Origin: an uncultured Candidatus Saccharibacteria bacterium
GTDB lineage: Bacteria; Patescibacteriota; Minisyncoccia; UBA6257; 2-01-FULL-56-20
Direction of reading: 5' to 3'
Assembly (NCBI GenBank): GCA_964645125.1
Contig: CAZXZC010000001.1
Coordinates: 1-55,978, forward strand
Length of the DNA: 55,978 bases
Position 1 is the stretch's first letter; every line of letters begins with the position of its first letter. The notes below the pieces were generated by a model that saw nothing but the letters and a program-made list of their open reading frames with translations, had not been told where the DNA came from and searched no databases. Of the stretch, positions 9,728 to 34,556 are shown in pieces. The position numbers and the translations under genes were made by a program.

Positions 9728-9766
9728 GGATTTTTATTTTATCATATATACGCTAGGATAATACGT

Positions 9767-10975
9767 ATGAATCGGTTATTTTCTTTCATTTCACGAGAAA
9801 AATCCCGCCAGGCGCGCACCATTACCCTTATCCCCTCAGAAAACTACGCCCCAAAGGCGGTGCGTGAGCTTACCGGCTCAATACTTACGAATAAATACAC
9901 GGAAGGCTACCCGGGTAAACGATACTACCCGGGCGCGGGAATATACGATGAAATAGAGACTCTTGCTAGAGCAACAAGCTTGAAGGCGTTTGGCCTAAAC
10001 CCTGCCGACTGGGCGGTAAATGTACAACCCTATTCCGGCTCCCCCGCTAATTTGGCAGCGCTACTCGCCCTGGCGGGGCCGGGCGGAGTCGTGATGGGGC
10101 TTTCACTCGCCTCGGGCGGGCACTTAACCCATGGACACTCTGTTTCGGCTACGGGGATGTTTTTTAAGAGCGTGGGATACACAGTTGATCCAGCTACAGC
10201 ATTGATCGACTATGAGCGACTTGAGGAGTTGGCACACCATCATTCGCCTACTGTGATTATTTCTGGCACAACTTCTTACCCACGCGCGATTGATTTTGCG
10301 CGCATTGGAGTAATTGCAAAAAAAGTGGGCGCATACCATGTGGCGGATATTTCACATATTGCGGGCTTGGTTGCAACCGGGTTACATTCATCGCCGTTTC
10401 CGCACGCAGACGTAGTTACTTCAACAACGCACAAAATGCTGCGCGGCCCAAGAGGAGCCGTGATATTTTCGCGCGTAGCATTGGCGCCAAAAATAGATAA
10501 GGCGGTGTTTCCGGGCTTGCAGGGCGGACCACATAACAATGTGATCGCGGCCATTGCGCACACCATGCAAAACGCAACGACGGCAAAATTTAAAACGTAT
10601 GCAAAGCAAATACTTCGCAACTCACACGCGCTGGCTGCGGCACTGCAAAAGCATGGCTTTGTACTTACCACCAGTGGCACTGACAATCATTTGATGGTGA
10701 TTGATTTGCAGAACGCGAATATTACTGGCGCGGAGGCAGAGGCGCTTTTGGAAAAAAATAATATTCTGGCCAACCGAAACTCAATCCCCTCCGACACCAA
10801 ACCATTCTCCCCGTCCGGCTTACGCATTGGCACACCGGCAGTCACTGCGCGCGGAATGAAAGAAAAAGAAATGGTGATACTCGCAGGTGCAATTGCAGAT
10901 GTACTTATTTCAAAAAAATCTGCTGCCAAAATTGTTGCTGGTTTATGCAACACCTTTACAGTCCCGAACGATTGA
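9767..10975 (+). CDS. glyA: Serine hydroxymethyltransferase
   Basis: Motifs include LIPSENY, KYTEGYPGKRYY, GGHLTHGH and the PLP-lysine segment TSTTHKMLRGPRG. I moved the start to the ATG at 9767 (MNRLFSF), because the longer track ORF from 9620 overlaps the htrA start region. Confidence 0.95.
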   Translation: MNRLFSFISREKSRQARTITLIPSENYAPKAVRELTGSILTNKYTEGYPGKRYYPGAGIYDEIETLARATSLKAFGLNPADWAVNVQPYSGSPANLAALLALAGPGGVVMGLSLASGGHLTHGHSVSATGMFFKSVGYTVDPATALIDYERLEELAHHHSPTVIISGTTSYPRAIDFARIGVIAKKVGAYHVADISHIAGLVATGLHSSPFPHADVVTSTTHKMLRGPRGAVIFSRVALAPKIDKAVFPGLQGGPHNNVIAAIAHTMQNATTAKFKTYAKQILRNSHALAAALQKHGFVLTTSGTDNHLMVIDLQNANITGAEAEALLEKNNILANRNSIPSDTKPFSPSGLRIGTPAVTARGMKEKEMVILAGAIADVLISKKSAAKIVAGLCNTFTVPND

Positions 10976-16446: not shown

Positions 16447-16476
16447 TTGACATTGGTATTTTAATTACTAATAATT
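16447..16476 (+). promoter_or_regulatory. Candidate sigma-70-type promoter with an overlapping near-palindrome that could be the RHH operator
   Basis: TTGACA lies at 16447-16452 and a TAATAA/AATAAT box 16-17 nt downstream. The 16-nt sequence TAATTACTAATAATTA (16463-16478) is 14 of 16 self-complementary. The site is 25-55 nt upstream of the RHH gene ATG at 16502. Confidence 0.4.
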
Positions 16477-16501
16477 AGAATACTACTTTTTATTCACTTC
16501 C

Positions 16502-16714
16502 ATGAGCACACCGAAGTCTTCGTATACTACCGTTTCAATTCCCCTTCCTTTGAACAATAAAATTAAAAAACTTATTAAAAATAGTGGGTTTCGGTCGACG
16601 TCGGCGTTTGTGATATTTGTGCTTCGAGAATTGCTCACCGAACAAGAAGGCGCAGACATCATACTGGGCCATGAGCGCATACGAGAACGATTAAAAACAC
16701 TCGGCTATTTATAA
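16502..16714 (+). CDS. Ribbon-helix-helix (CopG/Arc/MetJ-like) small protein with a C-terminal LKTLGYL tail
   Basis: The 70-aa protein has an RHH-like pattern: beta strand TTVSIPLPL, helix NNKIKKLIKNSGFRS, helix TSAFVIFVLRELL. It ends in ERIRERLKTLGYL. It is the first gene of the plus-strand operon. Confidence 0.6.
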   Translation: MSTPKSSYTTVSIPLPLNNKIKKLIKNSGFRSTSAFVIFVLRELLTEQEGADIILGHERIRERLKTLGYL

Positions 16715-16744
16715 TCAACCTCTTTATTCCTTTTTATTATTTCC

Positions 16745-17017
16745 ATGGAACTTTCAGCGATTCTCGGGTGGACTGCAACAATTTTGTTTACGCTGTGCTA
16801 CATTCCCCAAATACTTAAAACTCATAAAACAAAAACGGTTGAGGGTTTGAGTTTTTTACTTTTGTTTATTTCGTTCGTGGCGAATATCGTAGCGCTTGTG
16901 TATGCCAGCATTATTCACCAAGTGCCGTTGCAGGTGAAGTACAGCTTCGCGCTCTTGTTTCTTAGCGCCACGATTATTTTGTATCTAAAAATTTGGCACA
17001 GGGAACGGAAAAAATAA
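16745..17017 (+). CDS. SemiSWEET / PQ-loop 3-TM transporter
   Basis: The 90-aa protein has three TM helices and the PQ-loop signature LFTLCYIPQILKTHKTKTVEGLS. Its size and layout are typical of bacterial SemiSWEETs. Confidence 0.8.
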   Translation: MELSAILGWTATILFTLCYIPQILKTHKTKTVEGLSFLLLFISFVANIVALVYASIIHQVPLQVKYSFALLFLSATIILYLKIWHRERKK

Positions 17018-17021
17018 TTTT

Positions 17022-18170
17022 ATGAATACACCTCTCGGCAAAACACTTGTTCAACGTGTAGCAACAGCCAAAGAAAAGGCTCGATTACTTCGACTTGCAC
17101 TCCCCTCGCTTGCCATATCAGATGAGCGTGCCACAGAAGTTCGCAACATCGCCCATGGCGTGTATAGCCCGCTAACTGGGTTTTTGGGGAAAAAAGACGT
17201 GGGTTCTGTTCTTCGCCATTGCACACTTACCACCGGTGTGTTTTGGCCCATACCGATAATTCTCGATATTTCAAAAGAGCAGGCTCTGCAATTTAAAAAA
17301 CAGAATGTTCCACGTCTTTTTTTGACCTCATCGACCGGGCGCAAACTCGCACTTTTAGATGTTTCTGAAATATACATGTTCGATAAAAAGGCGTTTTGTA
17401 TGGGCGTGTTTAAAACTACCGACACAAATCATCCGGGCGTAAAAAAAATATTCGCGCGTGGCGAGTATTTGATAGCGGGAGACATTACACTCTTGCAAGA
17501 TACCAAGGGCGAGTTTGCTCGATACAATCTTTCGCCACAGCAGGTGCGTGGTATTTTTGCCAAGCGGCACTGGAAAACCATTGTGGGATTCCATACTCGC
17601 AACGTTCCCCATCGTGGGCACGAGCATGTGCAGCGCGAAGGCCTGAAGCATGCGGATGGAATATTCGTCAATCCGTTGGTAGGGGTAAAAAAGGCGGGCG
17701 ATTTTCGCAACGAGGTAGTTTTGAAAGCATATGAATATCTTGCCCGCTATGTGCTACCGCGCGGAAAATCCTTGTTAGGCATTTTACCCCATAACCCGTA
17801 CTACGCAGGACCACGAGAAGCGCTGTTAACGGCTGTAATTCGCAAAAATTTTGGCTGCACCCATTTTATTATTGGCCGCGATCATACCGGTGTGGGCGAC
17901 TACTATAAACCCCAAGATTATGAACGGATGCTGGCGCGATACCAGGGACAGATGGGTATTACTGTTCTGCATTTTAAAGAAGCGTTATATTGCCGTGGGT
18001 GCGGCGGTATGATGCTCGAGAATCTGTGCGTGCACGATGAACATGAACGTGTTCGCCCAAGCGGCACTAAGGTTCGTGCCGCACTTGTTGCAAAAAAACA
18101 TCCACCGCACGAAATGATGCGGCCTGAAATAGTACAACTCGTGCTTCGACAAAAAACATTATTCGTATGA
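17022..18170 (+). CDS. sat: Sulfate adenylyltransferase (ATP sulfurylase)
   Basis: The 382-aa protein has the signature motifs GFHTRNVPHRGHEH and HFIIGRDHTGVG, plus a PUA-like N-terminal domain. Confidence 0.93.
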   Translation: MNTPLGKTLVQRVATAKEKARLLRLALPSLAISDERATEVRNIAHGVYSPLTGFLGKKDVGSVLRHCTLTTGVFWPIPIILDISKEQALQFKKQNVPRLFLTSSTGRKLALLDVSEIYMFDKKAFCMGVFKTTDTNHPGVKKIFARGEYLIAGDITLLQDTKGEFARYNLSPQQVRGIFAKRHWKTIVGFHTRNVPHRGHEHVQREGLKHADGIFVNPLVGVKKAGDFRNEVVLKAYEYLARYVLPRGKSLLGILPHNPYYAGPREALLTAVIRKNFGCTHFIIGRDHTGVGDYYKPQDYERMLARYQGQMGITVLHFKEALYCRGCGGMMLENLCVHDEHERVRPSGTKVRAALVAKKHPPHEMMRPEIVQLVLRQKTLFV

Positions 18171-19579
18171 ACAAAAAAACTCCCTCGCTTAAGAAAAAAG
18201 TCTTTGTGCTTGGTATCGACGGGCTCGTGCCCAGACTTGTGTTTGATCAGTATCGCGCGCACCTTCCGACCTTTAGTCGTTTAATGAAAGAAGGTGCGTA
18301 TGCGCGACTGCAGTCGACCGTTCCGCCGTCTTCTATTGTTGCGTGGACTTCAATTGCCTCTGGCAAAGACCCCGCCCAAACCGGCATTCATAGCTATACC
18401 AACCCACCACATAAATCTCGCGGCACTCGACTCACTACTTCGCAGGATGTCAGAGTTCCTTTGTTGTGGGACATTTTAACCACGCATCACAAAAAATCTA
18501 TCGCATTAAATATCCCCCTTACCTATCCGGTGCGTCCCATCAATGGATTCATGGTTAGTGACTTTTTAACTCCTTCTTTTGATACTCACAGTGTATATCC
18601 CCTTTCGTATAAAAAGAAGATCACACAGCTTCTCAAGGGTAAAGAGTACATGTTTGATGTGGCGGGGTTTACGGGATACAAAAAAATGGATTTGCAGGCG
18701 ATTGTCGATAAAACATACGAGATGACCGATATGCACTTTACGGTTGCCAATGATTTATTTCGTACCGCTGATTGGGATTTGTTTTTTATGGTTGCCATTG
18801 GCAGCGATCGTCTGCACCACATGTTCTGGCGCCATATTGACCCAGCCCACTCTCAATTCGTAAAAAATTCAAAGTATAAAAATGTGGTATTGGATTTTTA
18901 TACATATCTCGACGCAAAACTTGCGAGCTTTTTAAAGGTTCTTGATACAAACCCCCATGCAACAGTGCTTATTGTTTCTGATCATGGCATGGATAAAATG
19001 GAGCAGCGCTTTAACTTGAATGACTGGCTTATAAAAAAGGGTCACCTGACACTTACGGCAGAAGCGAAGTTACTTACGACCGCAGGCCCCAAAAGACTCG
19101 AGTATGGCCCAATGATCGACTGGAAAAAAACTGTTGCCGTCGCCAGCGGTGGATACCAAGGTCGCATTTACCTACTTGAGAAAAACAAAGAAAAACGAGC
19201 GAAGCTAAAGCGTTCAATTATGCAGCAGCTTGCTAAAATACCCGGCGCACGTGGTGAGCAACTAGAAAACCATGTGTTTGATACTGCGACACTCTACGCT
19301 CGGGTGGATAGTGCCGCACCGGACATTATTGTCTACTTCGATAATCTGCGCTATGGGGTAAATAACGATGTTGGCAATGTGGGCTTATACTCCACGGCAA
19401 CTACGGTGGGCGTTGATGACGCAGGACACGCCCCGTTAGGAAGTATTATTATTCGATCTTCCGACCTTCTCCAAACAGGAGACTTAGGCACTCTTGATAT
19501 ACTCCAGGTTGCACCAACTATCCTGAAGGCCTTGGATTTGCCGGAATACAAAAAACTGCGTGGCGCCCCCCTTCTCTAA
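18167..19579 (+). CDS. Alkaline-phosphatase-superfamily protein (type I phosphodiesterase / nucleotide pyrophosphatase family)
   Basis: The 470-aa protein has VFVLGIDGLVP, STVPPSSIVAWTSIASG (putative nucleophile region) and VSDHGM. Its start overlaps the sat stop by 4 nt. Confidence 0.75.
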   Translation: MNKKTPSLKKKVFVLGIDGLVPRLVFDQYRAHLPTFSRLMKEGAYARLQSTVPPSSIVAWTSIASGKDPAQTGIHSYTNPPHKSRGTRLTTSQDVRVPLLWDILTTHHKKSIALNIPLTYPVRPINGFMVSDFLTPSFDTHSVYPLSYKKKITQLLKGKEYMFDVAGFTGYKKMDLQAIVDKTYEMTDMHFTVANDLFRTADWDLFFMVAIGSDRLHHMFWRHIDPAHSQFVKNSKYKNVVLDFYTYLDAKLASFLKVLDTNPHATVLIVSDHGMDKMEQRFNLNDWLIKKGHLTLTAEAKLLTTAGPKRLEYGPMIDWKKTVAVASGGYQGRIYLLEKNKEKRAKLKRSIMQQLAKIPGARGEQLENHVFDTATLYARVDSAAPDIIVYFDNLRYGVNNDVGNVGLYSTATTVGVDDAGHAPLGSIIIRSSDLLQTGDLGTLDILQVAPTILKALDLPEYKKLRGAPLL

Positions 19580-19597
19580 ACATTTATTTTTATCTTC

Positions 19598-20665
19598 ATG
19601 AAACATCCTCACAAAAAACTCGCGACCCATATTTTGTGCACTATCGGCCCCACATCCGAATCAAAGACTGTTATTTCTGGACTCGTAAAAGCGGGCGTGC
19701 AGGGGCTGCGCATTAATTTAAGTCATACTCCACCCGAAAAGGCCCTTGCCATTGCACGCACCATTCGCAGTGTTTCAAAAACTGTTCCACTTATTATTGA
19801 TACTCAAGGAAAAGAAACACGCGTTGGTTCACTTGCTGGATCAATTACCATTTCAACAGGAGATACGCTTACTATTACACACTCTCATACTCACCCACTT
19901 CCCGCGCTTCATATTAGTCGATCCGATGTGTTTGACGTGGTGCGTCGAGGTGATCGATTCTCTCTGGATGATAACGCTCTTGAGTTTAAAATTATGAATA
20001 TTGATCGTGAGCATTCTCACCTTACTGTCGTTGCGGTAAAGGGCGGTGTGGTTGCAGCACCAAAAAACATAAAGTTTAAAAAGCCGTTTGAACCAAAATA
20101 TCCGCTCACTGACCGTGATCTTGAGACAATCAAGCTCCTTGCCCCCCTGGGCATTACCGAAGTTTCGCTTTCCTATGTGACCGATGCTGCCGATATTAAG
20201 CACTTGCGGGCGATGGTGTCGAAGAACATTCAGATTTCATCGAAGATTGAAAAAATGGCTGCCATTACCAACTTAGATGAAATTATTCAAGGCAGCGATA
20301 GAGTATTTATTGACCGTAACGATTTAGGTACAGAAATTGGGTATGAAAAAATACCACTCGTGCAAAAATTTATTACTGCCCGTTGCATTGCCGCTGAGAA
20401 GCCAGTGTTTGTGGCAACTCATCTACTAGAGAACATGATTACCAAAGACAAGCCGACCCGCGGTGAGGTAAACGATATTATCAATTTAGTACTTGATGGG
20501 GTACATGGCCTTATTCTTTCTTCTGAAACAGCTGTTGGGAAAGATCCGGTACGAATTGTAAAAACATTACAAACCTTGATCGCGCAAGCAGAATTTATTC
20601 TTCATAAAACCAAAGGTGCGGTGGCAGACACTTTGGCGCGACTCGATACGCTTCACTATCTCTAA
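19598..20665 (+). CDS. pyk: Pyruvate kinase with A and B domains only; the C-terminal domain is absent
   Basis: The 355-aa protein keeps the PK catalytic motifs: ILCTIGP, RINLSH, IIDTQGKETR, SSKIEKMAAITNLDEII, FIDRNDLGTEI, ATHLLENM and PTRGEVNDIINLVLDGVHGLILSSETAVGKDP. It ends about 110-120 aa short of typical PKs. Confidence 0.85.
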   Translation: MKHPHKKLATHILCTIGPTSESKTVISGLVKAGVQGLRINLSHTPPEKALAIARTIRSVSKTVPLIIDTQGKETRVGSLAGSITISTGDTLTITHSHTHPLPALHISRSDVFDVVRRGDRFSLDDNALEFKIMNIDREHSHLTVVAVKGGVVAAPKNIKFKKPFEPKYPLTDRDLETIKLLAPLGITEVSLSYVTDAADIKHLRAMVSKNIQISSKIEKMAAITNLDEIIQGSDRVFIDRNDLGTEIGYEKIPLVQKFITARCIAAEKPVFVATHLLENMITKDKPTRGEVNDIINLVLDGVHGLILSSETAVGKDPVRIVKTLQTLIAQAEFILHKTKGAVADTLARLDTLHYL

Positions 20666-20677
20666 CCTCTTGCACCC

Positions 20678-21208
20678 ATGAAAACACAGGCCGCCTGCAC
20701 CGTTTGGTTTACTGGCTTATCTGGTTCGGGTAAAACCACGCTGGCTCGGCGTTTGAAACGCGCGTTGTCACGCCGAGGACACACTGCAGTCATTTTAGAT
20801 GGTGATGAGATTCGTAAAACCATTTCAAAAGATTTGGGTTTTTCAAAAAAGGATATTGCAGAAAATCATCGGCGCATTTTGGAGCTATGCAAAAAACATG
20901 CCCAGGCTGGCACCATTGTTATTGTGGCAACTATATCCCCTCACCGAGCAGTTCGGGCGCGTGCGCGCGCACAACTACCGCGGTTTGTAGAAGTATATTG
21001 CAACGCATCCCTTGATACGGTTCGGGCGCGCGACGTGAAGGGTCATTATAAAAATGTTGCATCGGGCGCACTGCGACAGTTTATTGGAGTGCATACCCCG
21101 TACGAAGCCCCCAAAGATCCCGAACTTACTCTGGCCACCCACGCAGAACCCCCCACCGTATCACTGAAAAAAATATTAGGATTTCTGGAAACTTGCGACT
21201 ATATTTAA
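20678..21208 (+). CDS. cysC: Adenylylsulfate (APS) kinase
   Basis: The 176-aa protein has the P-loop VWFTGLSGSGKTTLA, followed by ILDGDEIR and the LGFSKKD segment. Confidence 0.93.
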   Translation: MKTQAACTVWFTGLSGSGKTTLARRLKRALSRRGHTAVILDGDEIRKTISKDLGFSKKDIAENHRRILELCKKHAQAGTIVIVATISPHRAVRARARAQLPRFVEVYCNASLDTVRARDVKGHYKNVASGALRQFIGVHTPYEAPKDPELTLATHAEPPTVSLKKILGFLETCDYI

Positions 21209-21229
21209 TGGGTAGAATTTTTTTCTTGT

Positions 21230-22285
21230 ATGGCAACCATATATCTCCTCACAAACTCTCCAGACCAGCTCCAGGGTGCTTTTTTTAAGAGTACTGATGT
21301 TTCCACCGGCGGAAGATCAAATGTGGTGTTTTGGAATGAATTTAATGAGGCACTGCGTCAGAGCGGACACGCACTTGCAACCCATGATCAGTGGTCAAAA
21401 GAAATTGCTAATCCCGACGATATTTTAATCGTCGTTAACCATCCCGGAGAAACACTTTTATGGAAATTGTACTACCTATTTAAACACTTCAAGAGTCGCG
21501 GCGGCTTCATTCTTGATCGCCAGCGGTTTTTGAACACAAACTATCGTTTTTTTCAGAAGCGAATTTTGCTCCAAGCAGAGCCACCGATGGTGATGCCATA
21601 TGTATATCGCAATCTGTCATCTTTAGATGCCCAACGCGTTTACACAAAGATACTGTTAGTGTGCAAGGGGTTTGGTGCTCAGTATGGATACTTCAATAAC
21701 TTCTCTGATATTGGTAAAGATATTACGAGTAGGTATTTTAATAATCAAACACGTAAATTTCTTACGCTTATTAATGCAAACGTCACTCCTCATTCATTTA
21801 TCAATGAGTTTTACGGTGAACGCCTGAAGGCAATACGCTATTTTAGTACTGTGCCTGGCTTTGATCTCTATGGGTACAAGTGGGATGGTTTTATCAGACA
21901 TCCACTCTATATTCACTACGGCTCATATGTCAAAAAAACGTGGCGGGGCACAACGCCCGATAAAATAAAAACACTGAGTGAGTATACTTTTTGTTTATGT
22001 TATGAAAATTGTGCCTACCCCGGATATTTCAGTGAAAAGATATTCGATTGTTTGGCGGCTGGGTGCATCCCTGTATATTTGGGAGCGCCCGATATTACTG
22101 ATGTAGTACCTGCCTCATGTTTTATTGATTTTAGAAATTTTCCGGATTACCCATCGCTCCACCGACATCTTTCATCTTTGTCGGAACATGACATTAGTCG
22201 CTATCGCGCCGCTATTGCTGCATTTTTGCACAGCCGGAGCGGAAGTGCTCACATGCACGATTTTGTACAAAAACTTATTGCCTGA
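21230..22285 (+). CDS. GT10-like glycosyltransferase (alpha-1,3/4-fucosyltransferase family)
   Basis: The C-terminal region EYTFCLCYENCAYPGYFSEKIFDCLAAGCIPVYLGAPDI..FIDFRNF matches the GT10 motif (F.L.FENS...GYVTEK..DA...G.VPVY.G). Confidence 0.7.
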   Translation: MATIYLLTNSPDQLQGAFFKSTDVSTGGRSNVVFWNEFNEALRQSGHALATHDQWSKEIANPDDILIVVNHPGETLLWKLYYLFKHFKSRGGFILDRQRFLNTNYRFFQKRILLQAEPPMVMPYVYRNLSSLDAQRVYTKILLVCKGFGAQYGYFNNFSDIGKDITSRYFNNQTRKFLTLINANVTPHSFINEFYGERLKAIRYFSTVPGFDLYGYKWDGFIRHPLYIHYGSYVKKTWRGTTPDKIKTLSEYTFCLCYENCAYPGYFSEKIFDCLAAGCIPVYLGAPDITDVVPASCFIDFRNFPDYPSLHRHLSSLSEHDISRYRAAIAAFLHSRSGSAHMHDFVQKLIA

Positions 22286-22362
22286 TAACTACCCCTTGGT
22301 TTTGCAAACCGTCTTCTTTGTTTTTTTCTCAAAACGCTCTATACTGGTTCGGTACTTATTCT

Positions 22363-22980
22363 ATGGCGAAACACTATCCCTCCAGAGCCAAATTAAGTGA
22401 TGATGAGCTCGCACAAACGGCGGCGCTGTTGAAACGCGTCACCCCGATCCCCTACATGGAAAACAAAGTATTTAAGGCGTTTTGGGAGGGACGTTTAATG
22501 CCCATGATGACTCTGGAGTTTTTTATTTTTCAAGAAAATCCATTTACCTCTTCCAAAAAAACATTGCCTCCTATTCTTCTTTCATACCGCACCGATGAGT
22601 ACTACGATGCCTGGCATGTGCCTGGGGGGTATTTGGGAGCAAAAGAAAGTATTGCCGAAGGTGCCCAGCGCATCTTGCAGCGTGAGCTCGGGACTACTCC
22701 AAAAATGATGCAGCCGCTTTTTATGTTGAACCGCCCGCACGGAAGCCGAGAGCACCATGTGTCTGCGTTTATCGGCGTGACCCTAGCAAAAAACCCATCA
22801 ATTAAAAAGGGGTCGTTGGAGTACTTTAGTTTGTCACGACTTCCAAAGAATCTTATTCCCTACTACTACGAAGTTATTCCTTTATTGCGCAAAACATACG
22901 CATTTTCTCGAAGTTTACCGCCACGCACACGCGCATCATTTTTTAATATATTGAAGTTTTGCGAAATTTCAGGAACCTAG
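22363..22980 (+). CDS. Nudix-fold-like protein with a degenerate Nudix box
   Basis: The segment WHVPGGYLGAKESIAEGAQRILQRELG approximates the Nudix box GX5EX7REUXEEXGU only imperfectly. It is a distant paralog of 26171-26773. The start is set at ATG 22363, since the track starts at an upstream TTG. Confidence 0.5.
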   Translation: MAKHYPSRAKLSDDELAQTAALLKRVTPIPYMENKVFKAFWEGRLMPMMTLEFFIFQENPFTSSKKTLPPILLSYRTDEYYDAWHVPGGYLGAKESIAEGAQRILQRELGTTPKMMQPLFMLNRPHGSREHHVSAFIGVTLAKNPSIKKGSLEYFSLSRLPKNLIPYYYEVIPLLRKTYAFSRSLPPRTRASFFNILKFCEISGT

Positions 22981-26016: not shown

Positions 26017-26170
26017 GCTTACCACTGTACCACCGGCACCTTCTAATTTCAAACAAATGAATGCACCATCTTAAATAGAAATATTGACAAAAGTTATAAA
26101 TATAATATAGCATTGTTCCAGTTTGATTATTTACAAGGTATCGAACATTTTTGCAAAAGGAGACTATGGT

Positions 26171-26773
26171 ATGAATGATGCTCTGTTAAAAATATTGAAG
26201 GAAACTCCACTTGAGGAGCTTGGGCCGGTATTTGAAATCCTGGCCCGGCGAGTATACAACCACCGGAAACAGAATAACGGCTATGTGCCTTTGTCCATTT
26301 TCCCGTTTTGCGTGGGGCTTGGCGGGGTTTATCCCTGCGTGGAGATTGTTGTAATTGATTCGGAAAATGGATTGCCAATGGTCAAAAAACGGAATTCCAA
26401 GTCGGAGCATGGTTATCAAAATGAGTTTCAAGTACCTGGGGTTACGGCTCGGATCACTGATGGTCCAATCGACGTTTTAAATCGAGCCTTCAGAGAGCTT
26501 TTTGGCCTGGACTTACAATTCGATTATTCCGATTTTCCCAACCTTGAGATGGTCGGGATCGAAATCCATGATGAACCATACCGGCGTGCCACCTGCTGGA
26601 CACTGGTATACAAGTACTTTCTTCCGTCAGGATTGCGTAAGGTTTTAGTTGGGGAATGGAAATATGTTCATCCTCCGTATGACGACCCTGAGGTTGTCGA
26701 TCACCATCGTGCAACATTGTCATGGGCGTGCACACCAAAAGATGGACGACCGTTTTTTGTTGCATTGAGGTGA
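26171..26773 (+). CDS. Nudix-fold-like protein with a degenerate box; paralog of 22363-22980
   Basis: The 200-aa protein is preceded by a strong SD (aaaggagactatggt then ATG). The segment FQVPGVTARITDGPIDVLNRAFRELFG parallels WHVPGG...RILQRELG of the paralog. Confidence 0.45.
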   Translation: MNDALLKILKETPLEELGPVFEILARRVYNHRKQNNGYVPLSIFPFCVGLGGVYPCVEIVVIDSENGLPMVKKRNSKSEHGYQNEFQVPGVTARITDGPIDVLNRAFRELFGLDLQFDYSDFPNLEMVGIEIHDEPYRRATCWTLVYKYFLPSGLRKVLVGEWKYVHPPYDDPEVVDHHRATLSWACTPKDGRPFFVALR

Positions 26774-26925: not shown

Positions 26926-27624
26926 CTAAATGCTCGGATACGGAACCAGGCCGATTTGTTCACGTTGAAAGCGGATTGTATCGATGACAAGCCGCAGATG
27001 CGCGGCCATAGGCAATCCGATTTCTCTGGCTTTTGGTAAAACCAATCGGTATGGACCCTGCTCTTGCACCCATTGATTGGCGCAGTAGTTCACGTCAAAG
27101 AGGACGCTCCCTGGGTTTGCGTAGGTTGCGGTTGGATTTTTTTCAAAATATACCGGATCCAGCACTGGCAAATGCGACTGATAACTGGCTGATCGCGCAA
27201 AGAGCGTGGCCATAAGATTTGCCAGCTTGTCTCCATCCTGCAAAGCCGTTTTGACGATATCATCGCCCTCCCTGTTGGGGGTGCGGTGGTTGACCACGGC
27301 CAAAATCACTCTTTCTTTTTGATGGGCAGAAAAATCGGTGCCCATTTCTAACCAATCCATCACCAACTGCTTGGGAACGATGGTCGCCCATGCAAGACTT
27401 GCAGCCCCTGCATTGGTGATAACATGATCGGCGCTGTGACAAAAACCAGCGGCACCAGCCAGCAGTGCAGTTTCCGGATCGGGAGCAACGATATGTGCAT
27501 AGGTTGCCACGCACAAATCGTGATCGAATCCGTGTCCTTTATCGAGCACGCCCGTTTGTCGGTGTGCGCTTTTAACCAGCTTGGCAAGTTTTGGGAGTAT
27601 TTCCCACACTTTCTTTCCTTTCAT
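26926..27624 (-). CDS. HD-superfamily-like protein (putative metal-dependent phosphohydrolase)
   Basis: The 232-aa protein is preceded by a strong SD (ggcggaggcttttt then ATG). HD-like landmarks are KGHGFDHDLCVATYA, FCHSADH and LQDGDKLANL. The family call is tentative. Confidence 0.45.
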   Translation of the reverse strand: MKGKKVWEILPKLAKLVKSAHRQTGVLDKGHGFDHDLCVATYAHIVAPDPETALLAGAAGFCHSADHVITNAGAASLAWATIVPKQLVMDWLEMGTDFSAHQKERVILAVVNHRTPNREGDDIVKTALQDGDKLANLMATLFARSASYQSHLPVLDPVYFEKNPTATYANPGSVLFDVNYCANQWVQEQGPYRLVLPKAREIGLPMAAHLRLVIDTIRFQREQIGLVPYPSI

Positions 27625-30318: not shown

Positions 30319-31305
30319 ATGATAGGATTAGCATTACCAATGACAAATCAAGAGATTCGGCAACACATAGGCACTCTTATTGCTCATCGCCCGACGCACC
30401 CAACCGGCTTTTGGAAAGAAAGCCTTGACTCATTTGATTACGTGCTCTCGCTTCCACCCGATGAGTTCGCTCGTACCCTACGGGTTCACACTCACTACCT
30501 CGATGGAGATTCACATATCGATTATTTGTTTCGGCTGCAGTATGAGAACTATACGCTTAACTACGAAACGCTTATTCAAGAGGTGCCGCAGCGCTACCAT
30601 CTGTCAGCTCCAGACATTTGTAAAGAGCCGGGGTATACGGTACGGGGCGCACGGGTAAGTAAGGCGACTATGCGGTTTCAGCACGTGGTGAACGCGTTTT
30701 ATACCGCGGGCGTCTTTAACCATCTCCCCGCCCGCCCTACCGTGCTTGATATTGGGGGAGGATATGGCAGTTTAATTTATTTTCTTTCAACGCTTATTGG
30801 TCGTGGGCGGTATGTCATTGTTGATGTGCCAGAGGTTTTGTATTTCTCGGCAATATATTTACAGACTGCGTACCCAAACTGGAGGCTTTATATCTACGAA
30901 CCACACACTCCTATCCCCGATGATTGCGACTTGGTGCTCTGGCCTGATTACGCACTCGATACACTACACTTGGGCACTATTGATTTGGCAACGAATGTTG
31001 CGTGTTTTCAAGAAATGAATGAGGCGCAGGTTATTTCGTATTTAGATTTTTTGAAACGCAATAACACGCAACTCCTCTACTCTTCAAACCAAGACTGTCA
31101 ACCGTTTAATACCGCGGGCCACAACGTAACAAATTTGCTGAAAAAATATTTTTCTTTAGAGGAAATTTTTTATCACACAAGGACGAATGTTTCAGCGCAC
31201 AAACTTATGGACCTTTCGCTTCGTAAGATTTTCAATCGACTTCAACTTATTGGCACCTTTTCCAAAGACAGCAACCACGAATACCTTTGCAGGCCGCTGC
31301 CATAG
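30319..31305 (+). CDS. SAM-dependent methyltransferase, putative sugar O-methyltransferase type
   Basis: The 328-aa protein has a glycine-rich SAM motif (VLDIGGGYGSLIYFL) followed by IVDVPE and CFQEMN. The functional subtype is inferred from context. Confidence 0.6.
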   Translation: MIGLALPMTNQEIRQHIGTLIAHRPTHPTGFWKESLDSFDYVLSLPPDEFARTLRVHTHYLDGDSHIDYLFRLQYENYTLNYETLIQEVPQRYHLSAPDICKEPGYTVRGARVSKATMRFQHVVNAFYTAGVFNHLPARPTVLDIGGGYGSLIYFLSTLIGRGRYVIVDVPEVLYFSAIYLQTAYPNWRLYIYEPHTPIPDDCDLVLWPDYALDTLHLGTIDLATNVACFQEMNEAQVISYLDFLKRNNTQLLYSSNQDCQPFNTAGHNVTNLLKKYFSLEEIFYHTRTNVSAHKLMDLSLRKIFNRLQLIGTFSKDSNHEYLCRPLP

Positions 31306-32921: not shown

Positions 32922-34295
32922 TTATTTTTTGATAGCCATCTCGGTGGGTCCACAGATGCGAGTATACGGCTCAAGCATTGTTTCTAATTTCTTTGCTATC
33001 TCTGGTTCTTTAGCATAGAGATTATTTTCACAGAGTACATCATCTAATACGCATAGCGTTGTAGCGTCAATCATTTTCACCATTCGATATCCTCCATATA
33101 CAAGACTTGCGCCCAAAAATGTTTGGTTCGATAGATCTGCTTCTGAATCAGGCACCTGCCCGATTATTGCTCGTTCTGTTGCATCAAATATATTACCCCC
33201 CTTAAACACTGTTGGCTTGGTAATACCGGCGAGTTCGAGTACGGTTGGTGCAACATCAATAAGACTTACTGGTCTTTCGATGCGTGCTTGTGGTATGTGT
33301 GCTGGCGCATGGAATAGTAATGGGACATGTTGATTTACATAGTACAGCGTATCACGATGGCCAACGCCTCCGTGATCAAAAAACTCCTCTCCGTGGTCAG
33401 AAAAAATAACCACGATACTTTCATCATTTATAATGCCCTTTTTGGTGAGTGTGGCATAGAGTCTTTCTATATTTTTATCTGTGTAGCGTAATGATGCATC
33501 GTAAATTTCTCGATACAATGATTTGATCATCTTTAAGAGTGGTGACGTTAATCCACCTGCCAGCATTGGAGCTATGTCGCATAACCAATACTTACACTTT
33601 TGCACGAGCGTCCCTGTTTTGCGCCAGAAGAGCCCGTAGGGAGCGTGAGTGTCCATGAAGTGGACCCACAAAAATAATGGCTGCTCGGTCTGGCCTGGCA
33701 CTCTTTTCTCCACTTCTTCATTTATTTCTTCGGCAATTAAAAATGCAGGGCGAAATCGAAATATATCGACTATAATTTTACGGATCGTGAAGATGGTTTT
33801 TTCTACTATACGGAACAAAAAGGCAACAAGCGGTACCTTGCTCCGCAAAGACCGATTTATTGAGCCTATCGTTTTTAATACCTTCGATTGCCATGTATCG
33901 CCTCGTATGCCCTTCATAATTCCGCCTGTTTTGAACGGACTGAGGTATGCATACGTGTCCCACCCCCTGTCATATCCAAAATATGAGGACATGTACCCGG
34001 CCGAATGAACCCCTATTGTCATATATCCAGCATCGTGCAAAACCTCACTTATCATAACTCGGGGACGATCGATATATGCAAACCCCCCATAATCAAATGG
34101 GTGGGTTGAGGTAAGTGTTCCTACAAAGGAGTGCGGAGAACCAGGCCCCGTAGAAAACGCTCGCAAAAAAACCGCGCTTTTCAATGCAATCGCGTCAAGG
34201 AACGGGGTGTAGCTCGGCTTGTAACCACCGTATCCCATTCGATCCCCTCGCCCTGCATCAAAACTTATAAAAATGATGTTTGGCTTTTTTTTCAT
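32922..34295 (-). CDS. Sulfatase-family (alkaline-phosphatase superfamily) hydrolase/transferase without an evident C/S-x-P-x-R formylglycine motif
   Basis: The 457-aa protein has PNIIFISFDAGRGDR (metal-binding Asp), WVHFMDTHAPY, FSDHGEEFFDHG and SLIDVAPTVLELAGI. The position of the expected CxPxR reads GPGSPHSFVGTLTS. Confidence 0.8.
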   Translation of the reverse strand: MKKKPNIIFISFDAGRGDRMGYGGYKPSYTPFLDAIALKSAVFLRAFSTGPGSPHSFVGTLTSTHPFDYGGFAYIDRPRVMISEVLHDAGYMTIGVHSAGYMSSYFGYDRGWDTYAYLSPFKTGGIMKGIRGDTWQSKVLKTIGSINRSLRSKVPLVAFLFRIVEKTIFTIRKIIVDIFRFRPAFLIAEEINEEVEKRVPGQTEQPLFLWVHFMDTHAPYGLFWRKTGTLVQKCKYWLCDIAPMLAGGLTSPLLKMIKSLYREIYDASLRYTDKNIERLYATLTKKGIINDESIVVIFSDHGEEFFDHGGVGHRDTLYYVNQHVPLLFHAPAHIPQARIERPVSLIDVAPTVLELAGITKPTVFKGGNIFDATERAIIGQVPDSEADLSNQTFLGASLVYGGYRMVKMIDATTLCVLDDVLCENNLYAKEPEIAKKLETMLEPYTRICGPTEMAIKK

Positions 34296-34343: not shown

Positions 34344-34556
34344 CTACATATATCCCAATGCCTTCAGTTGTTCCATAACCTTCTTTTTTTCTTCTTCGGT
34401 TGCTGAATCCTGCTTCGTATCGGCTTTTTTTAAAGCACTCTTCTTTTTATTCTCTTCTTTTTGCGATGACCCACCGCCTTTTCCTGTGCTCTTTTTGTTT
34501 CCTGAAAACCAATTTTTCATATACCTTATGCTATCAGGCATCTTACGACGAGGCAA
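34344..34556 (-). CDS. Small lysine-rich, probably disordered protein ending in an LKALGYM tail
   Basis: The 70-aa ORF could be 58 aa if it starts at the internal MKNWF. It is low-complexity and K/E/S/G-rich, and it ends EEEKKKVMEQLKALGYM. That tail parallels the RHH protein tail ERIRERLKTLGYL. The ORF fills the gap between the GT2 and sulfatase-like genes on the same strand. Confidence 0.5.
   Translation of the reverse strand: MPRRKMPDSIRYMKNWFSGNKKSTGKGGGSSQKEENKKKSALKKADTKQDSATEEEKKKVMEQLKALGYM

Follow-up and report, generated by a model that had tools for sequence, protein, structure and literature searches.

Several described groups of ribbon-helix-helix (RHH) proteins resemble the regulator reported here. 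In the RHH antitoxins (FitA, ParD, CcdA and RelB) an N-terminal RHH domain is followed by a disordered linker and a short C-terminal helix for partner binding; their gene is the first of its operon, and they bind repeats in their own promoter. Mnt, Arc, CopG and omega are small RHH repressors that occupy short repeats, either tandem or inverted, as dimers of dimers, with Mnt adding a C-terminal oligomerisation helix, and NikR and MetJ are RHH regulators of a metabolic or uptake pathway. Genes for sulfate uptake and activation are known to be controlled by CysB, Cbl and CymR, and short C-terminal peptides on flexible linkers, common to related proteins, are known from clamp-binding and PIP-box motifs, encapsulin cargo-loading peptides and the SSB tail. 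Here we describe a 70-amino-acid RHH protein encoded by an uncultured Candidatus Saccharibacteria bacterium (contig CAZXZC010000001.1 of assembly GCA_964645125.1, analysed over its first 55,978 nucleotides and hereafter called the window), which heads an operon for sulfate activation and carries a short C-terminal tail that recurs on enzymes of the same pathway.

We establish a family of such regulators, the gene neighbourhood that it keeps, an operator linked to the type of its beta-strand and the restriction of its tail to a single pathway. From comparative sequence evidence, the protein is very probably an autoregulated repressor of its sulfate-activation cluster, which serves the synthesis of 3'-phosphoadenosine 5'-phosphosulfate (PAPS), and would act through the motif TAATTA-N4-TAATTA. 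The tail may, by analogy, be a docking peptide common to the regulator, the enzymes of the pathway and a set of microproteins, a proposal for which we see the chances as evenly balanced. Taken whole, an autoregulated repressor of sulfate activation whose tail is a putative docking peptide is the best explanation that we can offer, and we lean slightly towards it.

A family of RHH regulators defined by its tail

Translation of the open reading frame (ORF) confirmed that it ends in the tail, followed at once by the stop codon (Table 1), as a model's sequence-only reading of the window had noted. The protein itself had no match in Pfam or NCBIfam. Among its six close homologues Y8-P14, L64, L67, G68 and Y69 are invariant and the linker between them varies. 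A profile search covering 1.84 billion representative proteins matched 690 clusters at E ≤ 1e-3, with the family consensus ...YTTVSIP..L..KI...I..TGF.SVS..V.FVLRE, a variable and often acidic linker, and then IKERLK.LGYL, the tail itself following [IV]KERL[KR]xLGY[LIMF]. Publicly, members are annotated merely as 'CopG family' or 'Arc/MetJ-type' regulators.

The best solved-structure match to the family profile was the RHH domain of NikR (E=1.3e-3), and Pfam RHH_1 weakly matched 40 of 91 family members (best E=7.8e-6). An AlphaFold2 (AF2) model of the window protein placed residues 11-40 at a predicted local distance difference test (pLDDT) score of 92-95, with an extended N-terminus, helices at 15-24 and 33-48, a low-confidence linker at 51-55 and a C-terminal tail helix at 57-67; no strand was called in this monomer, a ribbon of this kind being formed by the dimer alone. 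The top Foldseek matches of the model, FitA and omega, were weak (E > 1). The NikR match, the weak RHH_1 matches and the predicted helix pattern thus support, at the level of its family, the assignment of the window protein as an RHH protein, and the row of eight genes that begins with its own bears out the earlier view of it as the head of a sulfate-activation operon.

The tail was present in 118 of the 150 best family representatives, when defined as L-x-x-[LIVMC]-x-[YF]-[ILVMF] plus at most two residues at the end, and most of the others were truncated or slightly variant. Across all fetched loci it was found in 224 of 227 RHH members, so it is a defining, integral part of the family and not something detached from an enzyme. 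The sequence-only reading had taken it for a piece detached from alkaline phosphatase (AlkP) superfamily enzymes, a view that these counts do not support. The tail is equally the usual end of CysD and PAPS-reductase proteins (27 of 28). Tandem duplications of RHH plus tail occur naturally in the family, and a second RHH-tail paralogue is frequent within one cluster. Thermoproteota clusters usually have two, type A (about 80 amino acids, with YTTVSIP) and type B (about 70 amino acids), the latter carrying ...ISKELYEKAKKY... and MSKEDEEKVKERLRALGYI; the genes at 9760-9972 and 9983-10228 of locus L011 are one such pair.

Operator and gene neighbourhood

A promoter scan of the window found TTGACA-17-AATAAT at 16447-16475, with 11 of 12 positions matched. 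The 16-mer TAATTACTAATAATTA, which spans the promoter spacer and the -10 hexamer, is its own sole match in the window when up to one mismatch is allowed. It had been described as a 14-of-16 palindrome and a plausible RHH operator; it is better seen as two self-complementary TAATTA hexamers, 10 bp apart. A -35-like hexamer followed by TAATTA-N4-TAATTA precedes the RHH gene in five Patescibacteria loci that differ in the surrounding sequence, and TTGACA (TTGACT in L003) occupies the same relative place upstream of the RHH homologues in L001, L003, L007 and L012.

The exact motif was present in 55 of 78 loci compared, archaeal as well as bacterial. We counted 70 sites in 988 kb, where shuffles of local composition gave an expectation of 0.36 (shuffle maximum 2), and nearly all of these sites lie 0-85 bp upstream of an RHH-tail, APS (adenosine 5'-phosphosulfate) kinase, TauE, CysD or Sat gene. 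On this comparative evidence TAATTA-N4-TAATTA appears to be an operator conserved over two domains of life, and the earlier suggestion of an RHH operator is borne out to that extent. The motif lies upstream of 44 of 74 genes of the YTTVSIP type, versus 0 of 33 of the VTIKIP type, 1 of 40 of type B and 4 of 86 other genes, and as found here it accompanies type A paralogues only, not type B. Such co-variation of operator and beta-strand type is what direct recognition by the RHH ribbon predicts.

Since TAATTA is self-complementary, each hexamer would be a fitting site for a single RHH dimer, and the pair of dimers would lie on the same face of the DNA. At some promoters of TauE permease genes three or four TAATTA hexamers are phased at exactly 10 bp (L060 228-263, L062 5677-5712 and L064 8736-8771), implying that more than two RHH dimers would bind there. 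In the metagenome sample that was seeded with the tail, the exact operator was scarce (9 of 80 loci), so other RHH-tail subfamilies, such as the VTIKIP type and type B, must read other sites. The VTIKIP-type subfamily is common in clusters with CysDN.

In the mechanism that we propose, RHH dimers would put their YTTVSIP beta-ribbons into the two TAATTA hexamers at 16462-16477, which lie one helical turn apart and over the -10 box, and the bound protein would block RNA polymerase. The overlap of the operator with the -10 hexamer argues for repression by promoter occlusion, and the target would be the operon of eight genes encoding the RHH protein, a PQ-loop protein, Sat, a PF01663 enzyme, a pyruvate kinase (PK), APS kinase, a GT10-like glycosyltransferase and a NUDIX protein.

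A scan of species-representative genomes, made with an alignment of 15 sequences, recovered 69 loci in which an RHH-tail gene stands beside ATP sulfurylase (Sat or CysDN). Five belong to Patescibacteria, Saccharibacteria or Liptonbacteria, and the remaining ones to Thermoproteota (Desulfurococcales, Acidilobales, Pyrodictiaceae and Thermofilaceae), plus one Bathyarchaeota. Neighbouring genes, grouped by clustering and Pfam annotation, showed a recurrent order of RHH-tail, Sat, sometimes a DHH phosphoesterase, and PF01663, with APS kinase and often a TauE/SafE permease alongside (about 50 Thermoproteota loci); Sat is directly downstream of the RHH gene in about 50 archaeal loci, PF01663 is a conserved member in 44, and most clusters encode at least two tail-bearing proteins. 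Patescibacteria and many metagenome contigs have CysD-CysN in place of Sat, with the RHH-tail gene still adjoining. In 39 loci the flanking sequence extends for 4 kb or more to either side. Within 4 kb of the RHH gene, 37 of these have an ATP sulfurylase, 33 an AlkP-type gene and 26 APS kinase, so that ATP sulfurylase keeps closest to the RHH gene, ahead of the AlkP-type genes.

A related arrangement was seen in a Thermodesulfobacteriota locus (L201, 8001-17665), where a tail-bearing PF01663 gene stands at the edge of an exopolysaccharide cluster, beside an operon of a sulfate ABC transporter, a tail-less PF01663 gene, a CysD with tail and CysN. This arrangement means that the link between PF01663 and ATP sulfurylase reaches beyond archaea and Patescibacteria.

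A type II toxin-antitoxin module was considered and rejected: no toxin gene is adjacent. Downstream, the window has the genes for the PQ-loop protein and Sat, while related loci have Sat, TauE or CysD.

The tail across the sulfation pathway

In the fetched loci, 105 of 1169 called genes end in the strict tail pattern, versus about 6 of 14259 spurious ORFs (4e-4). Two tails among about 55 window genes are far above this rate, and chance is excluded. To sample the tail with no selection by protein family, metagenome contigs were scanned for the back-translated DNA of [IV][KR][ED][KR]L[KR]xLGY[LIVMF] plus stop; this superseded a query with tandem tails, which matched only proteins of up to 70 amino acids and gave a biased census. 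The scan recovered 120 tail-bearing ORFs: about 85 RHH proteins, 12 PF01663 proteins, 6 sulfatase-like PF00884 proteins, 4 PAPS_reduct proteins of about 215 amino acids, 1 APS kinase and 1 sulfotransferase, the remainder (a dozen or so) being tail-only microproteins or truncated fragments. There was no ORF of an unrelated family among the 120, and the same DNA pattern had no match in viral contigs.

Over all loci, the tail is almost constant on the RHH proteins, as given above, and on the CysD plus PAPS_reduct family, occasional on PF01663 (8 of 65), sulfatase-like proteins (3 of 18) and APS kinase (2 of 62), and missing from Sat (0 of 66), CysN (0 of 13), DHH (0 of 31) and TauE (0 of 31). It is a mark of sulfate activation and sulfation in general rather than of AlkP enzymes specifically. 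An association of the tail with AlkP-type genes, which had been proposed together with such a motif scan, was found, in the PF01663 and PF00884 members of the 120 ORFs, but as part of an association that spans the sulfation pathway.

The CysD proteins encoded beside RHH-tail genes end in ...ERGGRAQDKEKEYVMQQLRALGYM, the same motif as the RHH tail, and these ends align with that of Pseudomonas syringae CysD (...SMEEKKRQGYF, the C-terminus of PDB 1ZUN chain A). Over its last 12 residues the RHH tail agrees with the ends of CysD in L001, L005-L007 and L201, and the tail fits the C-terminal motif of CysD-type, PAPS_reduct-fold ATP sulfurylase subunits, ...ER.GR..DK....M..L[KR].LGY[MF]. The fused tails that the sequence-only reading had mentioned for sulfatase and phosphodiesterase family proteins do exist: PF01663 proteins of about 550 amino acids, distant homologues, end in an acidic stretch plus IRERLxALGYL(E/G/D), and PF00884 proteins with the tail end in ...IKERLRKLGYI. 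Two further arrangements involve APS kinase, which is fused in one ORF with a type-B RHH-tail protein in a Bathyarchaeota genome (L031 6342-7112), and which in L151 (2184-2903) keeps its native end (...LELLNYI), followed by a linker and then a canonical tail.

The weak structure matches of the tail, to helix 1 plus the LGF loop in UBA domains and to the final helix in APS kinase, show it to be a short amphipathic helix with a glycine cap, followed by an aromatic and then a hydrophobic residue; no solved structure carrying a free tail was found. Among APS kinase structures, 7yq0 ends in ...VLKKLMELGY plus one residue and 5cb6 has ...KLVDLKYI two residues from its end. Since solved APS kinases end in such similar helices, the end of the window APS kinase, FLETCDYI, is native to its family. 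The AF2 model of a tail-bearing PF01663 protein, P0107, gave its C-terminal extension (residues 521-550) a pLDDT of 84-90, and is compatible with packing of the extension in cis.

Since the RHH protein has no ligand-binding domain, we infer that its signal enters via the C-terminal tail. The tail, a flexible linker with an amphipathic, glycine-capped helix that closes with Tyr and a hydrophobic residue, would serve as a short peptide for docking. The nearest parallel is with the RHH antitoxins, in which the C-terminal tail binds the product of the gene downstream. The regulator, the enzymes and the microproteins would share or compete for one binding site, and partner binding or competition would set the activity of the repressor, coupling the state of the pathway to transcription. 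Candidate receptors are APS kinase, the AlkP-type enzyme and ATP sulfurylase, none of which is present in every locus.

Several points weigh against this reading. APS kinase and AlkP-type genes are missing from some loci, and Sat and CysDN have unrelated folds, neither being an obvious common receptor. The last seven residues of the P0107 model, including the most conserved LGYLG, reach a pLDDT of only about 65. The motif is a generic helix-capping one, found also inside UBA domains, PG-binding domains and the last APS kinase helix, and the tail could have a simple structural or oligomerisation role. Repression rather than activation, finally, is read from the position of the operator only.

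The role of the tail might accordingly be self-association alone, as in Mnt, with the helix joining two RHH dimers on the regulator, for cooperative binding to the two hexamers, and promoting homo-oligomers on the enzymes, and with no cross-talk between them. Operators with two half-sites, or with three to four phased 10 bp apart, suit a dimer of dimers, and an 11-residue amphipathic helix on a flexible linker, the presence of at least two tail-bearing proteins in most clusters and the natural tandem duplications of RHH plus tail are all in keeping with it. A generic oligomerisation helix, however, would not be expected to hold L-x-x-L-G-Y invariant over six unrelated enzyme folds, nor to stay within one pathway among 120 sampled ORFs, and the tail-only microproteins have nothing to oligomerise. 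We consider self-association as the sole role unlikely.

The microproteins include the second tail of the window. The small basic protein encoded at 34344-34556 on the minus strand has 70 amino acids from a TTG start or fewer from internal ATGs, and is lysine-rich and apparently disordered. That it ends in EQLKALGYM and then stop, as the sequence-only reading had it, was confirmed. It had no usable match in Pfam or NCBIfam, and the exact protein is absent from the public gene-call collection, where it appears to be unannotated. Related basic, tail-only microproteins are P0318 (L012/L077, 47 amino acids, ...DKVMEQLRALGYL) and those at L012 9761-9976 and L003 9714-9878. In the Patescibacteria locus L077 the microprotein gene is divergent from an operon of RHH-tail and PF01663 and directly precedes a PF00884 gene, so that the arrangement with the sulfatase-like gene recurs there as in the window. 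Judged by these relatives, the second window tail belongs to a real, conserved microprotein family.

Such neighbours bear on the proposal that the tail docks specifically on AlkP-superfamily enzymes (PF01663/PF00884), a tail-less enzyme being served in trans by the small protein encoded next to it. The tail is fused to some of these enzymes and separately encoded beside others; PF01663 directly follows the RHH-tail gene in L012/L077, and the sulfatase-like gene directly follows the basic microprotein in the window and L077. In L088, L095 and L118 a PAPS-reductase protein with tail is followed by a sulfatase-like gene. The 33 loci with an AlkP-type gene within 4 kb and the confidently predicted extension of P0107 point the same way. 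The earlier statement that both tail genes of the window lie directly upstream of an AlkP-type enzyme stands for the microprotein but not for the RHH gene, from which the PF01663 gene is separated by those for the PQ-loop protein and ATP sulfurylase. Given that 6 of the 39 well-flanked loci have no AlkP-type gene nearby, and that CysD carries the tail much more constantly than AlkP enzymes do, we are doubtful that these enzymes are the specific receptor.

A separate family of tail-only peptides of 34-35 amino acids has a conserved KPSGN (M..KPSGN.ELT.E.K..IKERLRRLGYL; L074 5925-6032, L075, L076 and L172). Its gene overlaps the start of an operon of a family 2 glycosyltransferase (GT2), a sulfotransferase, a radical-SAM/SPASM protein and a methyltransferase, on a contig that also has ribonucleotide reductase and many small ORFs, a layout like that of a modified-peptide gene cluster.

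Such a peptide, of 35 amino acids and in front of a GT2, sulfotransferase and radical-SAM/SPASM operon, would fit the idea that the invariant tail Tyr is a covalent acceptor, sulfated by a PAPS-dependent enzyme or adenylylated by ATP sulfurylase. The Tyr is invariant, stands beside a free C-terminus and after an acidic stretch, and the motif is confined to proteins making or using APS or PAPS. If the Tyr were modified, tail-bearing regulators and tail-only microproteins would be protein-borne reporters or carriers of activated sulfate, and the RHH repressor would read the APS/PAPS pool directly through its own tail. Most clusters, however, have no recognisable sulfotransferase, and the Tyr is flanked by Gly before it and a hydrophobic residue after it, unlike known tyrosine-sulfation sites, which favour acidic neighbours. 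This makes covalent modification highly improbable in our judgement.

Slimmer still are the chances that the tail is a membrane-targeting amphipathic helix, holding the sulfation enzymes and the regulator close to lipid-linked glycan acceptors and the sulfate importer. Like the membrane-targeting helices of MinD and FtsA, the tail helix is C-terminal, amphipathic and preceded by a flexible linker, and in many cases the gene after the RHH gene encodes a transporter (PQ-loop, TauE or Na/H-exchanger type). Anionic membranes would nevertheless be repelled by the strongly acidic residues ahead of the helix, the helix is short and glycine-capped, the transporter families vary by locus and many loci have none.

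Three known kinds of C-terminal motif were also set aside. In a proteasome-docking HbYX motif the Tyr would be penultimate, which it often is not here (LGYLE and LGYLG in many members and in PF01663 tails); the motif also occurs in Patescibacteria, which are not known to have proteasomes. The tail has no conserved Gln, and its hydrophobic spacing differs from that of PIP-box or beta-clamp motifs (Q-x-x-[LIM]-x-x-[FY]-[FYLW]; QL[SD]LF). Targeting to an encapsulin or microcompartment was dismissed because the search turned up no shell genes and a transcription factor would make an implausible cargo.

Window genes and relation to known systems

The genes at 16502-22980 on the plus strand form a row of eight co-directional, tightly packed genes with the RHH-tail gene first (Table 1), surrounded in the window by genes for glycan biosynthesis. 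The nearest homologues of the window proteins are in Patescibacteria and DPANN archaea, by which the contig is most likely one of Patescibacteria.

Table 1. Positions of the features discussed, numbered along the window
Feature	Positions	Strand	Remarks
-35-like hexamer TTGACA, operon promoter	16447-16452	+	promoter scan
Putative operator, two TAATTA hexamers (TAATTA-CTAA-TAATTA)	16462-16477	.	overlaps promoter spacer and -10 hexamer
-10-like hexamer AATAAT	16470-16475	+	promoter scan
RHH-tail regulator gene, 70 amino acids	16502-16714	+	ends ERIRERLKTLGYL then stop; RHH core about 8-48, variable linker 49-57, tail helix and cap 58-70
Codons of C-terminal tail ERIRERLKTLGYL	16673-16711	+	tail kept across family; motif common to CysD, PF01663, sulfatase-like, APS kinase, sulfotransferase and microproteins
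PQ-loop membrane protein, 90 amino acids, operon gene 2, possibly transporter subunit	16745-17017	+	Pfam PQ-loop E=4e-15
ATP sulfurylase, Sat type (PUA_2 and ATP-sulfurylase domains)	17022-18170	+	Pfam E=8.7e-75
PF01663 AlkP-superfamily enzyme (nucleotide pyrophosphatase/phosphodiesterase-like), without tail	18167-19579	+	Pfam E=5.6e-33; 4-bp overlap with Sat
PK barrel-only protein, end ...RLDTLHYL	19598-20665	+	Pfam PK E=1.2e-64
APS kinase, end ...FLETCDYI	20678-21208	+	Pfam E=7.1e-50
GT10-like glycosyltransferase	21230-22285	+	
NUDIX protein	22318-22980	+	
Sulfatase-like PF00884 gene, directly 3' of microprotein gene	32922-34295	-	Pfam Sulfatase E=5.7e-34
Small basic tail-only protein, end ...EEEKKKVMEQLKALGYM (EQLKALGYM then stop)	34344-34556	-	start codon uncertain

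A tail-bearing PF01663 protein related to the window enzyme folds like the nucleotide pyrophosphatases of the ENPP/NPP type. The PK barrel encoded next to the PF01663 gene of the window operon has no C-terminal regulatory domain, and its end (RLDTLHYL, LDTLHYL) is tail-like. A fusion of PK and PF01663, P0076, ends in LEKLKEIGYV, and P0042 and P0044 (812-820 amino acids) are perhaps fusions too, which suggests that PK and PF01663 are a conserved functional pair, possibly for ATP regeneration and product removal in PAPS synthesis.

The window sulfatase-like protein lacks the C/S-x-P-x-R formylglycine motif. The same holds for other 'sulfatases' that bear the tail or follow a microprotein (L128 and L132). 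Like the window protein, these appear to have Thr at the nucleophile position, for example T-P-P-S-H in L132. From their sequences, such Thr-type sulfatase-like proteins are probably transferases or phosphodiesterase-like enzymes, not true sulfatases.

Among the Pfam-scanned genes, which are only part of those in the window, none is a recognisable sulfotransferase. Three proteins of 216-328 amino acids in the glycan cluster (26123-26773, 26926-27624 and 30319-31305) have no Pfam match, and the PAPS user of the window may be found among them or may be an AlkP-type enzyme. A single-repeat PQ-loop protein of about 90 amino acids is encoded beside the RHH-tail gene in the window and in L044, where a BLAST-cluster homologue (c119) of the window PQ-loop gene precedes the RHH gene and the operator lies 14 bp upstream of c119; in L077 a Pfam PQ-loop gene is about 5.4 kb from the RHH-tail gene. 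The PQ-loop protein may be part of a small transporter of sulfate or sulfated sugars.

From the analysis come a candidate family of regulators, the sequence of its operator and a predicted regulon (the RHH operon, Sat, CysD, APS kinase and TauE). The regulator-operator pair occurs in Thermoproteota and in ultra-small bacteria, which points to exchange of whole cassettes between domains. The regulator, several microproteins and enzymes of at least five families in the sulfation pathway all bear one short peptide, a pathway-wide code of a kind that is unusual in prokaryotes; should this be a docking code, it would show how PAPS synthesis and use are physically organised and how they feed back to transcription. 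The uncharacterised PF01663 enzyme, the barrel-only PK and the Thr-type sulfatase-like proteins are flagged as core parts of microbial sulfation.

A literature search found no description of the RHH-tail family, its operator or its tail motif, nor of a dedicated sulfate-activation regulator in archaea or in Patescibacteria (the candidate phyla radiation). RHH autoregulators as such are already a known kind; what is new is the link to sulfate activation, the conservation of a regulator-operator pair over two domains of life, and a C-terminal peptide common to a transcription factor and the enzymes of the pathway that it controls.

Unlike the RHH antitoxins, the window protein heads metabolic genes (Sat/CysDN, PF01663 and APS kinase) with no toxin gene, and a tail sequence in common with enzymes, seen in the RHH-tail family, is not known from antitoxins. 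Mnt, Arc, CopG and omega are regulators of phages and plasmids, whereas the RHH-tail family is chromosomal and tied to one metabolic pathway, and its tail, which has a conserved Gly-Tyr cap, is helical over no more than about 11 residues. Nickel is bound by a C-terminal domain in NikR and S-adenosylmethionine by the RHH body in MetJ, whereas the window protein has no room for a ligand domain. CysB, Cbl and CymR have unrelated folds, of the LysR and Rrf2 types, with effector-binding domains. The C-terminus of CysD (1ZUN) has the same motif as the RHH tail, but in CysD this segment runs on directly from the catalytic domain. The sequence of the tail matches none of the known shared docking peptides, and here, unlike in those systems, a transcription factor bears the same peptide as the enzymes.

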